Shown piece after piece: positions 36,867-43,517 of a stretch of 64,000 nucleotides of DNA; the stretch's first letter is position 1; every line of letters starts with the position of its first letter. Both the position numbers and the translations under genes were made by a program. The stretch is taken from positions 608,001 to 672,000 of the forward strand of contig CAWHTE010000004.1 of the NCBI GenBank assembly GCA_963832165.1, in the 5' to 3' direction. The notes under the pieces are model-generated. The model had not been told where the DNA came from. It did not search any database and saw nothing but the letters and a program-made list of their open reading frames with translations. Source of the DNA: an uncultured delta proteobacterium. GTDB lineage: Bacteria; Myxococcota_A; UBA9160; SMWR01.

Positions 36867-37604
36867 ATGGCGATCCAGACCGAGCGCGTGAAGATTCCGC
36901 TCGACGGTGGCAAGACGATGGGCGGCTACCTCGCGCGGCCCGCGGGTGGCGACAAGCGACCCGGCGTGATCGTGTGGATGGAGATCTTCGGCATCAACTC
37001 GCACATCCGCGACGTGGTCGAGCGCGTGGCGGCCGAGGGCTACGTGGCGCTCGCGCCCGATTTCTTCCACCGCACCGGGCCCGACGTCGAGTACGGCTAC
37101 GACGATGCGGGCATGGCGGGCGGCATGAAGCTGCTCGGACAGCTCGACGCCGACGAGATGATCTCCGACGCGCGCGCGGCGCTCGCGTATCTGCGCGGCC
37201 GGCCCGACGCCACGGGCAAGGTCGGTGTGATGGGCTTCTGCATCGGCGGCCACATGACCTATCTCACCGCGTGCGAGACTGACGTGGCCGCCGCGGCGAG
37301 CTTCTACGGCGGCGGCATCGCCGCACCGCAGGGCATGGGCGGCAAGCCGAGTACGATCGGACGCAGCGGGCAGATCCGCGGGAAGATGCTCGCCTTGTTC
37401 GGCGAGAAGGACGCCTTGATCCCGCCCGCACAGGTCGAAGCGATCCGCGCCGCGCTCGCGAAGGCGGGATCGAAGCACGAGGTGGTCGTGTACCCGGGCG
37501 CGGACCACGGCTTCTTCTGCGACCAGCGCGCCACCTATCAGAAGGAGGCGGCGGAGGACGCGTGGAAGCGCGTGAAGACGCTGTTCCGCGAGCAGCTGGC
37601 CTGA
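36867..37604 (+). CDS. Dienelactone hydrolase family protein
   Basis: EIFG, GFCIGG, GEKD, YPGADHGF; RBS AGGAGG. Confidence 0.92.
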   Translation: MAIQTERVKIPLDGGKTMGGYLARPAGGDKRPGVIVWMEIFGINSHIRDVVERVAAEGYVALAPDFFHRTGPDVEYGYDDAGMAGGMKLLGQLDADEMISDARAALAYLRGRPDATGKVGVMGFCIGGHMTYLTACETDVAAAASFYGGGIAAPQGMGGKPSTIGRSGQIRGKMLALFGEKDALIPPAQVEAIRAALAKAGSKHEVVVYPGADHGFFCDQRATYQKEAAEDAWKRVKTLFREQLA

Positions 37605-37611
37605 TCTCCGT

Positions 37612-39147
37612 TCACTGCGATTCGACGCGCAGCGCACACAGCTGCGCGTCGGGCTGTCCCACGATCACGAGCACGTCGGGCGTGCGGTAGTCGACGCCGG
37701 GCGCGCCAGGCCTCACGCGCACGATGCCCGGCGCGCGCAGCTCTCCCACGGCGTTGCTGGGCGCGAACGGGCGCTCCTGCGATGCGATCTGGAATCGGTC
37801 GGGCGGGACCGGCACGGGCGGCGCGCCGGACAGGTCGATGCGCACGCGCGTGAACGTGCCGTCACAGAAGTCGGTCGCGAACAGCTCCGTGCCGGCCGCG
37901 TTCACGGCCACCTGGGTGAATCCCTCGCACTGCGCGGCGGGCGGTCCGTCGGAACGATCGGGCAGCACGAGCGGCTCGTCCGCGGTGAAGATGCCCGCGT
38001 GGGGCGTGTTCGCGCTCTGCCCGAGGATCGCCGGCGGACCCGCGGAATAGAGACTCGGGTCGTCGAGCGCTCGCAGGTCGACGCCGTAGATCTGGCGATG
38101 CGACGAGGCGCCGACCCACGCGAGCCGGCCGCCCGGGTCGATGGCGGGCGCGTCGAACGAGGGGCCCGCGAACCCGAGCGGGATCACCGCGGCGATCCGC
38201 GGCACGCTCGGATCGATCACCTCGATCGCGCCCGGACCGCGCACGTTGCCCGCGCCGGTTCCGCTCCCGATCGCGCCGGTCGTCGTCACGAGCACGAGCT
38301 CGCGCCCGCCCGGAGTCACGGTGCGCTGCACGCCGGTCGGATTGAAGTGCTCGGTGAACAGCACGGGCGTCGCGGCATCGGGTCGCACGCGCAGCACGCC
38401 GCCCGTCTCGATCCACTCGTAGACGAGCACGGTGCCCGGATGGAAACGCGTGCCGCTCACGAGATTCGACGTGGCGACGAACAGCCGTCCGCCAGCGACG
38501 GCCTTTCCGGCCGTGAGCGTGGTGAGATAGGACGGCTGCGTCGGATCGCACGTGGGGCTCGGCGCGGTCGGCTGCCCGGTCGAATCGATCGGCTCGACCG
38601 GTCGGATGCACGCGAGTGTCGAGATGCCCGTGCGCAGATGCGTCTGGCCGGGTGGCGGCAGCAGTGGGTACGCACCTGGCGCGGTGCTCGCGGGCGTCTC
38701 GACGAGCACGTTGCGCGGCGCCGCGGCGCTCGGGTCGTAGACGAGCAGCTGTTCGTAGTTGCTCGTGGAGACGAGGGCGAGGTCGTCGCGCAAGGCGGTG
38801 ATTTCGCCCATCACGGGCGTGAGAGGGAAGCCCACGATCGGCGCGATCGCGGAGGCGTCGTCGCGTCCGTCGCCGTCGCTGTCGGTGCCGATGTTGTCGA
38901 ACGCGAGCGGCGTCGGGCGCTCGGCCTCGAGGTCGAACGAAGCGACTCCGGGAGGGCTCGTCTGCACGAGCGCGGCGCGGTGCGAGGCCTGCGACAGCAG
39001 CGCGAGGCCGGACGGGAAGGTGCCCGCGAGGGGCGTGCAGTTGAACGCGATGGGCTCGCGCTCCACGACGAGTCCCTTGCCCGAGTCGCCGCCGCCCTCG
39101 CACGCGGCGGCGCAAAGCGCGAAGAGCGCGAGCGCGCGCGTCCTCAC
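37612..39147 (-). CDS. Uncharacterised lipoprotein, probable beta-propeller (YncE/BtuG-like position in the operon)
   Basis: Lipobox CAAAC + GGG linker; repeated short beta-strand blades (RLFVATSN, IEVID, LAWVG, ELFATD); coupled to the TonB receptor (GTGA). Confidence 0.6.
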   Translation of the reverse strand: MRTRALALFALCAAACEGGGDSGKGLVVEREPIAFNCTPLAGTFPSGLALLSQASHRAALVQTSPPGVASFDLEAERPTPLAFDNIGTDSDGDGRDDASAIAPIVGFPLTPVMGEITALRDDLALVSTSNYEQLLVYDPSAAAPRNVLVETPASTAPGAYPLLPPPGQTHLRTGISTLACIRPVEPIDSTGQPTAPSPTCDPTQPSYLTTLTAGKAVAGGRLFVATSNLVSGTRFHPGTVLVYEWIETGGVLRVRPDAATPVLFTEHFNPTGVQRTVTPGGRELVLVTTTGAIGSGTGAGNVRGPGAIEVIDPSVPRIAAVIPLGFAGPSFDAPAIDPGGRLAWVGASSHRQIYGVDLRALDDPSLYSAGPPAILGQSANTPHAGIFTADEPLVLPDRSDGPPAAQCEGFTQVAVNAAGTELFATDFCDGTFTRVRIDLSGAPPVPVPPDRFQIASQERPFAPSNAVGELRAPGIVRVRPGAPGVDYRTPDVLVIVGQPDAQLCALRVESQ

Positions 39148-41105
39148 CAGCGCACCTCGACACCCGCGCTGGCGTGGCGCCCGGGCTGCGGAAACGCGGT
39201 CACGTCGCGCACCGCTTCGTCGCCGATGTTGTTCAGGCGCGCGCTGAGCCAGAGCTCCGACACGACGGTGCGCAGGCCGAAGCCGGGCCACTCGACGAGG
39301 TTCAACGCGACCGCGGCATTCCAGACCGTGCGCTCGGGCAGGTGCCGGCTCCCGCCCTCGTCGACGAGGATCTCGCCCACGCGCGAGAGCTCGCCCACGA
39401 GCTTCCACACCGGGTCGGGGCCGAGCTGCAGCCGCACGTCGGTCTCGTACTCGGGCTGACCCGGCAGCCGGCGGCGGTTCGCATCGCGGCGTGAGTCGAG
39501 GAACGTCTGCTGGGCTGCGACCGAGACGAAGCGCGTGAGACGCAGCGACGCCGCGAGCTCGACGCCCTCGGAGGTGGCGTCGCCCAGGTTCTCGGGCCGG
39601 ATCGTGCTCGGGCCGATCTGCAGCCACGCGATCGATTCCTCGATCTCGCGCCGGAACACCGTGGCGCCGAGCCGGAGGTCCGAGAACCACCACGCCTGCG
39701 CGAGCTCGAGCTCGAGCCCGACGTCGTAGTTCAAGGCGTCCTCGGGCTCGAGGTCGGGATTCCCCGCAATGAAGCCCTCGTCGGGGTGGAACAGCTCGTC
39801 GAACGTGGGCACGCGATAGGCGCGCCCGACCTGCGCGCGCACCCGCAGCCAGCGCCAGGGCTCGATCACGAGCCCCGCGCTCGGCAGCCACTCGGTGCCG
39901 AAGCCGTCGGCCCAGTCGAGCCGCGCGCCCACCGAGAGCGACAATCGCTCGTCGAGCACGCGCAGCGTCGGCTCGAGCGCGGCACCGCCGTTCGCGCGCT
40001 CGCGCGCGCTGCGGTCGTTCGCGTGCAGCCAATCCTGTGCGCCGTCGAGCTGCACGCGCGCCGCGAGCATCTGATCGAACGGCCGGAAGCGCCAGGTGTC
40101 GATCGCGCGCGCTCCGAGCGTCTGGAGCCGCGCATTCACGTCGATCGGGTCCTCGAGTACCGCGACCGGATCCGAGAAGTGCGTGCGCTCGTAGCGGTGA
40201 TAGGCAGCCAGCTCGACCTCGTCGCCGAGCGCACGTTTGGGTGCGCCCAACCAGCGCAGCTGCGCGAGGTTCGAGAAGTCGCGGCTGTGCGCGTCGGTGC
40301 GCTGACCTGCGGTGGGTCCGTTTCCGCCGTCGAAGCCGGGCTCACCGCCGTCCGAGTAGACCGCGTAGTCCGAGAAGCGCAGCGTGCCCGGGCCGAGCGC
40401 TCCGCCGAGCCCGAACGTGCCGCCGTGCTGCACGCGGTCGTTGTTGATGCGCGTGGCCTCCTCGGGCTCGAAGCCCGCGGCGACGCCATCGCCGAGCTCG
40501 GTGCGCTGGACGAAGTCGAAGTCGCCCTCGGTCGAGAAGCCGCAGTAGCCGAGGCTCGCGTCGAGCGGGCCGACCCGATCGGCGTGCAGCGCGGAGCCCT
40601 CGAAGGTGTCGAACGCGCCTCCGGAGAACGAGGCCCGTGTTTCCGGCTCGGCGCCCGCCGCGCGCGACACGAGGTTCACCACGCCGCCGATCGCGCCGCT
40701 GCCTTGCTGCGCAGTGCCCGCGCCGCGCGTGATCTCGACGCGCTCGAGCAGCGGCAGGCACGCGCGCGTGAGGTCGAGGCCGCCCGTGAGTGCGCTGTTC
40801 GCGCGCACGCCGTCGATCGCCACGACCACCTGCGAGGGTGTCGAGCCGCGGATCGAGACCTCGGAGCGGTCGCCGGCTCCACCGAAGCGGCGCACGAACA
40901 CGCCCTCGGTCTCCGAGAGCAGGTCGGCGAGGCTCTTCTGCTCGGCCGTGTAGTCGTCCGAGAACAGCACGTCCGTGCTCGCCGCCGGAATCGGGTCGAG
41001 CTCACCCGTGCGCACGCCGCGCACGACGATCTCTTCGGGCGCGGGCTCTTCGGCCGATGCGGCGCCCGCGAGCACGAGCGCGGCGATCAGCGCCGCGGTG
41101 CGCAC
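39144..41105 (-). CDS. btuB: TonB-dependent receptor, probable cobalamin transporter
   Basis: TonB box EEIVVRG, plug SIRGS...IDGV...VEITRG...GAIGGVVN, YRVPTFDEL, NPDLEPE, C-terminal W; lies in a cobalamin-riboswitch operon. Confidence 0.8.
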   Translation of the reverse strand: MRTAALIAALVLAGAASAEEPAPEEIVVRGVRTGELDPIPAASTDVLFSDDYTAEQKSLADLLSETEGVFVRRFGGAGDRSEVSIRGSTPSQVVVAIDGVRANSALTGGLDLTRACLPLLERVEITRGAGTAQQGSGAIGGVVNLVSRAAGAEPETRASFSGGAFDTFEGSALHADRVGPLDASLGYCGFSTEGDFDFVQRTELGDGVAAGFEPEEATRINNDRVQHGGTFGLGGALGPGTLRFSDYAVYSDGGEPGFDGGNGPTAGQRTDAHSRDFSNLAQLRWLGAPKRALGDEVELAAYHRYERTHFSDPVAVLEDPIDVNARLQTLGARAIDTWRFRPFDQMLAARVQLDGAQDWLHANDRSARERANGGAALEPTLRVLDERLSLSVGARLDWADGFGTEWLPSAGLVIEPWRWLRVRAQVGRAYRVPTFDELFHPDEGFIAGNPDLEPEDALNYDVGLELELAQAWWFSDLRLGATVFRREIEESIAWLQIGPSTIRPENLGDATSEGVELAASLRLTRFVSVAAQQTFLDSRRDANRRRLPGQPEYETDVRLQLGPDPVWKLVGELSRVGEILVDEGGSRHLPERTVWNAAVALNLVEWPGFGLRTVVSELWLSARLNNIGDEAVRDVTAFPQPGRHASAGVEVRW

Positions 41106-41896
41106 TGCCGCCGGCGCCGCGCGCCGATCAGCGCGAGCGCGCCCGCCGCGAGCGCCCATGCGGGCAGGGGCTCGGGCAGGTGGAGCACGCCAACCGCATC
41201 GACATCGAAGCCGCCGCTCGCAAACGCGGTGGGGTAGGGGTCGTAGACGGCGCGATTCGCCGCGTCGAGCGTCGAGCCGTCGCCGATCACGTCGACGAGC
41301 CGCACGTGGGTGACGAGATCGAGGTCGAGCAGGCCCGTGCCGACGAGTGGGTCCGAGGCGAGATCGGCGAGGTCGAACCCGGTGCCCTGATCGAGCGGAT
41401 GCTTGCCCGCGAGGTTGTGATAGTCGCTCGGATCGATCACGCCGCCGCCCTCGACCGGATCGGGCTGCAGGCAGGTCGCGGCGAAGCGCGCGAAGTCGAC
41501 CCCGTTGCTCGATACCTCGACGAACGCGAACTCGCCGTAGAAGCCGCCCGGTGCGAAGAAGCCGTTCTCGTACACTGCGAAGTCGTCCCCGGGCCCGTCG
41601 CTGATCCCGTCGGCGAAGCGCAGCGTGAGGCGTCCGCCGTCGCCGAGCGAGAACACGTCGAAGATGTCGTTGGTCGCGGGGCCGAGGGCCCAGCTCGACT
41701 CGCCATGGCTCGCGTTCCCGCTGCCGGGGTTGGCGATGTCGAGCGGGCCGCGCACGGCCTCGACCACCGCGGTGGCCCACGCCGCCATGAGCCCGGGCGC
41801 GTAACCCGACTCGGTGTAGGGACCCGCGCGCGCGCGCGCGGTCCCGAACAGCGCGAGACCGGCGGCCAGTGCGAGCGCGCAGCGCGCTCGCCTCAC
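41087..41896 (-). CDS. PEP-CTERM-anchored cell-surface protein (BtuH-like/cell-surface family)
   Basis: Signal peptide; SLGDGG, DGPGDDFAVYENGF, AFVEVSSNG, GFDL, GFDVDAV; LPEP + TM + RRRR. Confidence 0.7.
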   Translation of the reverse strand: MRRARCALALAAGLALFGTARARAGPYTESGYAPGLMAAWATAVVEAVRGPLDIANPGSGNASHGESSWALGPATNDIFDVFSLGDGGRLTLRFADGISDGPGDDFAVYENGFFAPGGFYGEFAFVEVSSNGVDFARFAATCLQPDPVEGGGVIDPSDYHNLAGKHPLDQGTGFDLADLASDPLVGTGLLDLDLVTHVRLVDVIGDGSTLDAANRAVYDPYPTAFASGGFDVDAVGVLHLPEPLPAWALAAGALALIGARRRRQCAPRR

Positions 41897-42717
41897 GCGC
41901 GGCGCCGCGCGAGCAGGACCAGACCGAACCCCAGCAGCGCGGCGCTGCCGGGCTCGGGCACGAACAGGAGGTTGTCGAGTGCGAAGTAGGAAGGGGTGTT
42001 CAGGTAGCCGAAGCTCTGATCGCTCGAGTCGAGCGCGAACTCGAGCGCGGCGACCGTGCCGAGGCTCTGGAGATTGACGAACGCCCAGTTCGTGAGGATG
42101 TAGTCGAACTCGTCGTCCTCGAAGCGGTAGTCGGCGAGCACGAAGTCGATGTTGCCCGTCACCGCGTCGTCTGCGTCGCGCCCCGTGATCTCGAGGATCA
42201 GGTAGTCGGGATCGCTGCCGCTCGCGCCGCCGAACTTCTTCGCGAAGGCGTCGCCGTCGCGCATCGAGAGTGCGGCGTAGGTGGTATTGGTGAACGCCGC
42301 ACCGATCAGCTCGACGGGCTGGTCGAACGTGATGCGCGAGACGGGTCCCTGTGCGCCGACCTGGCCCCCCGTATAGGCCACGCCGTAGGTGGCGCTGCCG
42401 GAGGAGCCCGAGCCTGCGATCGCGCTGTACTGATTTCCGAAGCCCGGCGTCGTGGTGTCGGTGGTCTGCGAGTAGGCCCAGCCCTGCCAGAAGCAGCTGC
42501 CGCCAAACGTCGTGGTGTCGTTGTTGAACGTCGCGCCCTGGCTCGCGAAGTCCGTGCTCGGGCCCGGTGCGCTGCAGCCGTTGTAGTAGTAGTCGCCCGA
42601 GATCGGCAGGTTCGTGCCGAGGTCTTCGAAGTCGAGCGTGATGGCCGTGCCGGGCGCGGCCAGCGTCAGGGCGGTGAGCAGCGCGAGACCACTGCAGCGT
42701 GCGAGCGATCGGTGCAT
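41893..42717 (-). CDS. DUF4465 (BtuJ-like) protein with PEP-CTERM tail
   Basis: WQGWAYS, NQYSA, TNTTYA, GDAFAKKF, LADYR, W..VNLQSLG, SSD, NTPSYFALDNL; VPEP + TM + RRR. Confidence 0.85.
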   Translation of the reverse strand: MHRSLARCSGLALLTALTLAAPGTAITLDFEDLGTNLPISGDYYYNGCSAPGPSTDFASQGATFNNDTTTFGGSCFWQGWAYSQTTDTTTPGFGNQYSAIAGSGSSGSATYGVAYTGGQVGAQGPVSRITFDQPVELIGAAFTNTTYAALSMRDGDAFAKKFGGASGSDPDYLILEITGRDADDAVTGNIDFVLADYRFEDDEFDYILTNWAFVNLQSLGTVAALEFALDSSDQSFGYLNTPSYFALDNLLFVPEPGSAALLGFGLVLLARRRA

Positions 42718-42867
42718 GGCGGACTTCTCCGGGCGCCGCGTCCGGGCGCCGTGTGGGGTGACACACGGCTCGCGCCCCGCACAGCGGGGTTCCGAAGCGA
42801 GAAGCGAGCGCCGGGGTCCAAGTCCGGGCCTCTTCCTGGTCCTCGAAGAAGAGCGAGCCGTGGTTTG

Positions 42868-43075
42868 AGGGCCGGTCTTCTGGCTCCCGGATCTACCGAC
42901 CGCCGTGCCTTCCCAGCCCCATCGGGCCAGTGGCGTCCTACGGCGTTCGTACCCGGTTACAGCGACGGGCTCGCGCCGGATTCTCACCGGCTTCCCGCAG
43001 GTCGCTGCGCGCCTCGGTGGCATCGCATCGACCCGCCCACCGCCGTCACCGACGGTGGGTCACCCTCGATTCATA
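42868..43075 (-). ncRNA. Cobalamin (B12) riboswitch
   Basis: Minus strand GGGAAGCCGGTGAGAATCCGGC...GCCC...CTGTAA...GCCACTG...GGGAAGGC...GAGCCAGAAGACCGGCC (B12 box); 5' end approximate. Confidence 0.93.
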
Positions 43076-43086
43076 TTGTGCGATCC

Positions 43087-43116
43087 GTTCTAGCCGCAGC
43101 GGACGGAGCGTGTCAA
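43087..43116 (-). promoter_or_regulatory. Sigma-70-type promoter for the riboswitch/B12 operon
   Basis: Minus strand TTGACA-N18-TAGAAC immediately upstream of the riboswitch. Confidence 0.6.
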
Positions 43117-43325
43117 TTGCGTTTGGTTGCGGTTGCCCGGGCCGGGCGGATGTTTGCCGCTCCGGCCCGGGCTTCGGCGGTGAGCCGGAGCCGCGCGGCG
43201 CTCGGGCTCGTGCACGACGGGCCAATCACACCGCCCGGCTTGCCTGCGCCCGTACCTGCGCGACGAATTCAAGCGCCCGGCCTAGCGCATGGGGAGGTTC
43301 ACGCTTCCAGGGGACGAGTTCGAGT

Positions 43326-43517
43326 GCCGGGGTGGTTGGCTTGCTGCGGCGAAGTAAAGCGGAGCCGGCCACGGGCCGTCGCACGGCTCGTGGCAACTTG
43401 GGTTGGACCGGCAACCTGAAAGCCTGAAGCAATCGCTGGCTTCGGATCATTCGGGCGAGAGAGAACGTCACCCCCAGGCCGGCGAGCCATGAGCCGCAGC
43501 AAGCCAACCACCCCGGC
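43326..43517. other. Unassigned element closed by a perfect 25-bp inverted repeat (structured ncRNA, MITE or invertible segment)
   Basis: GCCGGGGTGGTTGGCTTGCTGCGGC at 43326-43350 and its exact reverse complement at 43493-43517; internal hairpins. Confidence 0.6.

Follow-up and report, generated by a model that had tools for sequence, protein, structure and literature searches.

This report concerns an operon of an uncultured delta proteobacterium in which a cobalamin riboswitch precedes genes for two PEP-CTERM proteins, a TonB-dependent receptor and a predicted propeller lipoprotein, and which probably encodes a system for the capture and import of vitamin B12. The operon lies in a stretch of 64,000 nucleotides (contig CAWHTE010000004.1, positions 608,001 to 672,000; hereafter the window), where the minus strand carries all of its elements, the riboswitch and four overlapping genes designated P1 to P4 (37612..43116). 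Upstream to downstream, these features are:

43087..43116, minus strand: promoter-like hexamers TTGACA-N18-TAGAAC, as read from the letters (TTGACA 43116-43111, TAGAAC 43092-43087).
42873..42997, minus strand: cobalamin riboswitch aptamer RF00174 (97 bits, E 6e-23).
41893..42717, minus strand: P1, 274 amino acids; signal peptide, DUF4465 (BtuJ-type jellyroll), PEP-CTERM tail.
41087..41896, minus strand: P2, 269 amino acids; signal peptide, putative BtuH-like domain (remote homology), tail of LPEP, transmembrane segment (TM) and RRRR.
39144..41159, minus strand: P3, 671 amino acids; TonB-dependent receptor, BtuB-like; alternative GTG start at 41105.
37612..39147, minus strand: P4, 511 amino acids; lipoprotein, predicted seven-bladed beta-propeller, unnamed family.

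In a covariance-model search, the aptamer (125 nucleotides) matched positions 45-169 of the 189 positions of RF00174 with a score well above the gathering score of 31.5 bits, and a search of the whole genome returned this match as the only one. The leader did not fold better than shuffled sequence (z -0.57), and a scan of the operon region found no terminator-like site on the minus strand. P1 and P2 overlap by GTGA, as do P3 and P4; P2 and P3 share 73 nucleotides, or 19 nucleotides if P3 starts at the alternative GTG. An initial annotation of the locus, made from the letters, had described a promoter, a B12 riboswitch and four overlapping genes. The riboswitch and the gene arrangement are confirmed by the covariance model and by the coordinates and overlaps given above; the strand had not been given in that annotation. 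Of the promoter, the hexamers about 90 bases upstream of the aptamer are indeed in the sequence, but a consensus scan of 37300-43400 called no sigma-70 site because TAGAAC lacks a T at position 6; the putative promoter is therefore reported as a consensus likeness only.

By its sequence, P1 clearly belongs to the BtuJ/DUF4465 family of B12-binding proteins. The protein matches DUF4465 (PF14717) with an E value of 5e-49 and 167.4 bits (Pfam cut-off 25), and its best relatives in the PDB are solved B12 complexes (9hmu, E 4e-25; BtuJ1 9fct, 1.5e-18; BtuJ2 9i2l, 2.4e-6), the closest solved one being D5EK51 of Coraliomargarita (9hmu). The HI-loop motif of P1 reads NTPSY, and NTPxY is found in 116 of the 120 P1 homologues listed. 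A paper from 2026 (PMC13398666) reports B12 binding for eight divergent DUF4465 proteins across phyla; it also describes a conserved NTPAY loop, a frequent neighborhood of DUF4465 genes with TonB-dependent receptors and PF16819 propellers, and a family made up of lipoproteins or periplasmic proteins. The terms PEP-CTERM and exosortase do not occur in that paper.

P1 lacks a lipobox cysteine where its signal peptide ends (..LAAPGTA/ITLD), unlike BtuJ1 and BtuJ2 with their lipoprotein anchor. Its C-terminus consists of VPEP, a hydrophobic stretch and RRRA, and scores above the cut-offs of both PF07589 (21.0 bits, cut-off 20.7) and TIGR02595 (18.1 bits, cut-off 16), so that the scans bear out the combination of DUF4465 and PEP-CTERM tail given in the initial annotation. 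According to a simple pattern, a tail of PEP motif, helix and basic residues also ends 108 of the 120 P1 homologues listed; the 12 others mostly have a variant motif or basic cluster, while the rest of them are truncated or have unrelated ends. The Pfam labels for DUF4465 and PEP-CTERM already stand together on some database records.

P2 has no family match in a Pfam scan. This protein ends with LPEP, a hydrophobic stretch and RRRR, which is the tail that had been ascribed to a second surface protein; all 32 aligned members of the family share its signal peptide, domain and PEP-helix-Arg tail, and 111 of the 120 P2 homologues listed pass the tail pattern. Most of the 1386 homologues come from metagenomes, and some are named PEP-CTERM proteins by NCBI. 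Searched against the PDB (177,635 sequences), the P2 family profile produced a sole match, to residues 395-477 of 8blw_B (E 0.036). In distant loci, lipoproteins bear a related domain whose homology to P2 is shown by hhalign (probability 99.2%, E 5.7e-20), and the profile of this distant form again matched only 8blw_B (E 0.15). After merging, the combined profile (A4) matched residues 388-497 of 8blw_B with an E value of 6.7e-5, with the runner-up at 0.41. Chain B of 8BLW is BtuG1, the C-terminal ~250 residues of which form a BtuH-like B12-binding domain according to PMC10404256. Since the merged profile matches this H domain, P2 is, by sequence, a remote homologue of the BtuH domain. The BtuH homologues reported so far come from gut Bacteroidota and three Firmicutes only; PMC13616437 also lists the residues of BtuH2 that form the metal site and contact the corrin. 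As a lead, a language-model search placed P2-like PEP-CTERM clusters in Pseudomonadota, Planctomycetota and Verrucomicrobiota.

The lipoprotein form of the P2 domain occurs at L036:9187-11262, L040:9053-10531, L045:10103-11317 and six more distant loci, in each case with an N-terminal immunoglobulin-like (Ig-like) segment. Most of these proteins end with an acidic ..DANGNGxPDAVE C-terminus.

P3 consists of a Plug and a TonB-dependent barrel (Pfam), as expected for the TonB-dependent receptor proposed initially. The best NCBIfam model is the B12 receptor model TonB-B12 TIGR01779 (132 bits, cut-off 599.7). A second BtuB equivalog, NF007926, gives 105 bits (cut-off 836); both rank near the top of the receptor models, and those of siderophore and heme receptors score 107-111 bits. 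The best solved relatives are chains of E. coli BtuB (E 2.4e-20, 75.7 bits), which align mostly over the plug domain. Thus, both the best-scoring subfamily and the best solved relative of P3 are BtuB.

P4 matches neither Pfam nor NCBIfam models, and a profile search of the PDB gave chance-level matches only. The structure model is all-beta and confident, with a predicted local distance difference test (pLDDT) of 90.5, and comparison by Foldseek and VIA identifies the modelled fold as a seven-bladed beta-propeller. With a lipobox cysteine at residue 16 that 35 of 38 aligned members share, P4 corresponds well to the propeller-like lipoprotein of ~510 residues that had been predicted. Five further cysteines are kept in all 38 members, a pattern that fits an exported protein. 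In the same alignment, residues D89, D91, D93 and D97 of a DSDGDGxDD loop (window 38850-38880, residues 89-97) are invariant; this loop looks like a calcium-binding motif.

The relation of P4 to BtuG is one of fold class. Among 1.84 billion proteins, the P4 family has 262 representatives at E 0.001 or better, and it is restricted to the lineage: of 301 genomes sampled from the phylum, 31 have it, most of them in the window's own order. Neither P4 nor any other protein of the genome matches PF16819 (DUF5074), the family of BtuG, which exceeds the cut-off in three of the 301 phylum genomes with partial matches. None of the 31 distant P4 relatives that we scanned belongs to a propeller family of Pfam, and some of them have thrombospondin-type or dockerin tails. 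No BtuG chain appears among the 48 (Foldseek) and 50 (VIA) structural matches listed, which are generic propellers instead. As far as the model can tell, P4 shares the fold class of BtuG and is separate in sequence from BtuG's Pfam family, membership in which is ruled out by the missing PF16819 match. The BtuG likeness put forward in the initial annotation therefore holds for the predicted fold class, the lipoprotein anchor and the gene position, but not for the family; on its structural matches, BtuG cannot be told from other propellers.

We compared 40 loci that encode P4 relatives. All of them come from species-representative genomes that are metagenome-assembled genomes (MAGs) of uncultured organisms, mostly labelled Myxococcota or Deltaproteobacteria. 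The receptor gene stands directly before P4 in each of the 40 loci (39 by script; the 40th, which is N-masked, by coordinates), and RF00174 lies in front of the operon in all 18 loci tested, which had been chosen from the 40 for full 7 kb of upstream sequence. The unit of riboswitch, receptor and P4 is strictly conserved in this lineage. A P2-type gene is present in 34 loci, 22 times upstream in the PEP-CTERM form and 12 times downstream in the lipoprotein form, and the six loci without it are at contig ends with less than 3.1 kb of upstream sequence. A DUF4465 gene is found in 18 of the 40 loci, in variable order.

Two arrangements in these loci deserve description. Locus L023 contains two cobalamin riboswitches (L023:9392-9555, minus strand, and L023:3852-3976, plus strand), one at the head of a P2-receptor-P4 operon and the other at the head of a separate divergent gene for a DUF4465/PEP-CTERM protein. 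In six other cases, a P2-type gene and a DUF4465 gene share a stop-free frame (L017:3233-4936, L018:3131-4891, L022:3059-4834, L039:3259-4932, L016:3025-4902 and L028:3238-5007). We translated these six loci, which are those with both matches in one frame, and found a single polypeptide with a hydrophobic leader and a PEP-helix-Arg tail on each of its two modules. Its topology is self-consistent, with a helical hairpin that would arise from the first tail and the second leader, and it might be processed into two proteins. A plain fusion of the P2 and DUF4465 domains was considered and dropped, because each half retains a signal-like helix and a PEP-CTERM tail in translation; we do not use these frames as Rosetta-stone evidence.

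In the window, the operon is flanked upstream by genes for a class-V aminotransferase, an HD phosphohydrolase and CutA, and downstream by genes for a dienelactone hydrolase, MiaE and an aldo-keto reductase. These are unrelated housekeeping genes, and therefore the operon is a discrete unit. Inspection of the operon and its flanking genes revealed no BtuFCD gene within the operon, in agreement with the initial annotation.

The genome (G000, 5.5 Mb, 89.4% complete) does encode exosortases, which had been named as a point to check. Six matches to PF09721 exceed the cut-off, and two of these are adjacent halves of one gene. By type, one exosortase is XrtA-like and three are long and XrtD/XrtW-like; the XrtA-like copy, on contig C5, reaches 140 bits with TIGR02602 (cut-off 105.55). 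The divided gene (G000:C3:208608-209364; L002, L005) consists of two adjacent pieces in different frames that cover model positions 2-138 and 139-251; either a frameshift or an error of assembly accounts for the split. With a simple pattern, 87 PEP-CTERM-like tails are found genome-wide, among them the tails of P1 and P2. At least two types can be told apart, VPEPxT..LGLxGLA..RRR and LPEPG...LL..RRRR, which together with the four to five exosortase paralogues suggests several classes of cargo. The B12-binding domain PF02310 has six matches over the cut-off, and no match to CobS or CobD/CbiB was found in the incomplete genome; the organism appears to need B12, with no late biosynthesis genes seen. 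On contig C7, a Peripla_BP_2 gene adjoins a gene for a FecCD permease, which makes a BtuF/BtuC-type pair.

Based on these data we consider it probable that the operon encodes a Bacteroides-style outer-membrane system for the capture and import of vitamin B12 and related cobamides. In such a system, low cellular B12 would lead the riboswitch to permit expression of the operon. P1 (BtuJ-like) and P2 (BtuH-like) would then be exported by Sec, cut at the PEP motif by an exosortase and, as we predict, reach the cell surface or the exopolysaccharide layer, there to hold scarce cobamides with high affinity. The lipoprotein propeller P4 would cap the receptor as a lid, in the manner of BtuG on BtuB, receive the cobamide either from the free binders or out of the medium, and hand it over to P3 for import with TonB energy. 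The BtuF/BtuC-type ATP-binding cassette (ABC) system elsewhere in the genome would complete uptake. Beyond the identity of the genes, this scheme is what we infer, as regards the binding of ligand by P2 and P4, the complex of P3 with P4 and the final place of P1 and P2. A more specific version, in which P1 and P2 are fixed in the exopolysaccharide layer and stockpile cobamides for the receptor, whose cap P4 would be a propeller of a new, independently recruited family, is conceivable and we put it forward tentatively, as the less probable case.

Several observations weigh against this interpretation. The tail of P2 is below the thresholds of both PF07589 and TIGR02595 and gives no match to either, and BtuH2 itself (7BIZ) is matched by none of the profiles. 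The structure model of P2 is poor (pLDDT 62.6); with this model, Foldseek produced no match at E 0.001 or better, the top matches were CBM32-like sandwiches, and 8blw_B came sixth (E 0.042). Hence, the proposed likeness of P2 to BtuH is sustained by the merged profile, but the model is too poor to speak for the fold. P3 scores far under the equivalog cut-offs of the BtuB models TIGR01779 and NF007926, and since the genome is 89.4% complete, the missing cob genes do not prove auxotrophy. We also know of no established destination of exosortase cargo in Gram-negative cells.

As an alternative we considered that P1 and P2 stay tethered to the inner membrane or are set free in the periplasm, where they would take the cobamide from the receptor to the ABC importer in a BtuF-like role or store it. 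We know of no route by which exosortase cargo would pass the outer membrane, no BtuF is encoded in the operon, and a C-terminal helix with an arginine cluster constitutes an inner-membrane anchor on its own, leaving the domain on the periplasmic side. In addition, PMC13398666 ascribes periplasmic targeting signals to the DUF4465 members that are not lipoproteins. However, the BtuF/BtuC-type pair is present elsewhere in the genome, and so are several exosortases and many PEP-CTERM proteins. The characterized relatives BtuJ1, BtuJ2 and BtuH are surface-exposed, and the distant loci that bear the P2-type domain on a lipoprotein with an Ig-like spacer have the layout of surface BtuH2. We therefore regard a periplasmic role as unlikely.

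The roles of P4 and P3 within a surface system could also differ from those outlined above. Instead of serving as a B12-binding lid, P4 could act at the outer membrane to dock or release the PEP-CTERM binders, or it could catalyze a step on the corrinoid. There is no sequence link between P4 and BtuG, proteins with seven-bladed propellers have many different functions, and the structural comparison does not discriminate. The nearest language-model clusters take in lactonase-type propellers, but recognition was lower than usual and the lead is weak. On the other hand, no catalytic family of Pfam or NCBIfam matches P4, its gene directly follows the receptor gene in all 40 loci as in btuB-btuG, and it is kept even where DUF4465 is absent (DUF4465 being found in only 18 loci), which leaves such a role a small chance. 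We assign a far smaller one to the idea that P3 imports another cargo, such as cobalt chelates, cobinamide only or another tetrapyrrole, with the riboswitch tying this import to the B12 status of the cell. Cobalt transport genes are controlled by B12 riboswitches in other bacteria, P3 is under the BtuB equivalog cut-offs, and the siderophore and heme models score only slightly less than the best B12 model. But the best receptor matches of P3 are still BtuB, the accessory proteins are members of, or similar to, families whose ligand is complete cobalamin, and no CobS/CobD match able to use precursors was found in the genome.

A capture and import system at the outer membrane thus remains the reading we prefer. 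Compared with the initial annotation, which had seen a Bacteroides-like corrinoid-scavenging module rewired to exosortase anchoring, the observation of the operon is confirmed and the functional reading is supported in part; as to the rewiring, nothing in the data shows an evolutionary direction. The binding of B12 by DUF4465 proteins across phyla and the relay in Bacteroides are already published. A literature search found no report that joins PEP-CTERM or exosortase with B12, the co-mentions being irrelevant by title or abstract.

So far, lipoprotein-assisted capture of B12 has been elucidated in gut Bacteroides only. The operon described here indicates that a similar set of parts, again under a B12 riboswitch, exists with another anchoring chemistry in an uncultured lineage labelled Myxococcota. 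It would give a testable function to two PEP-CTERM proteins and an unnamed lipoprotein family, and the remote BtuH family, with more than 1000 members elsewhere, would widen the BtuH class. If the more specific version, a trap in the exopolysaccharide layer, is correct, P1 and P2 would be the first PEP-CTERM cargo with a defined small-molecule ligand, and this tightly bound pink ligand would provide a colored and easily assayed reporter of where exosortase cargo goes.

Among known systems, E. coli BtuB is the best solved relative of P3, although a distant one. Like P3, it is under the control of a cobalamin riboswitch; unlike P3, which shares its operon with accessory proteins, E. coli BtuB works without such proteins at the surface. 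D5EK51 of Coraliomargarita akajimensis (9hmu) resembles P1 in its jellyroll domain and loop motifs, and its solved chain ends with VPE, which aligns to the start of the VPEP motif of P1. The PEP-CTERM tail of P1 differs from the account of the DUF4465 family as lipoproteins or periplasmic proteins in PMC13398666. With PEP-CTERM/exosortase systems, the operon and its genome share the PEP motif, the hydrophobic helix, the C-terminal basic cluster, the exosortases and the many cargo proteins; unlike the PEP-CTERM cargo described in the literature that we found, P1 and P2 have a predicted ligand. The closest parallel in overall layout comes from Bacteroides thetaiotaomicron, whose Btu loci consist, according to PMC10404256, PMC8941943 and PMC13616437, of a riboswitch-controlled BtuB-BtuG core with the accessory binders BtuH and BtuJ. 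The operon in the window differs from these loci in phylum (the relatives being labelled as Myxococcota or Deltaproteobacteria MAGs), in the Sec signal peptides and PEP-CTERM tails that P1 and P2 carry in place of lipoprotein anchors, in a propeller outside BtuG's Pfam family, and in the lack of BtuFCD. It resembles them in the riboswitch, in a receptor followed by a lipoprotein that is predicted to be a seven-bladed propeller, and in a DUF4465 binder and a putative BtuH-type protein, all in one operon.

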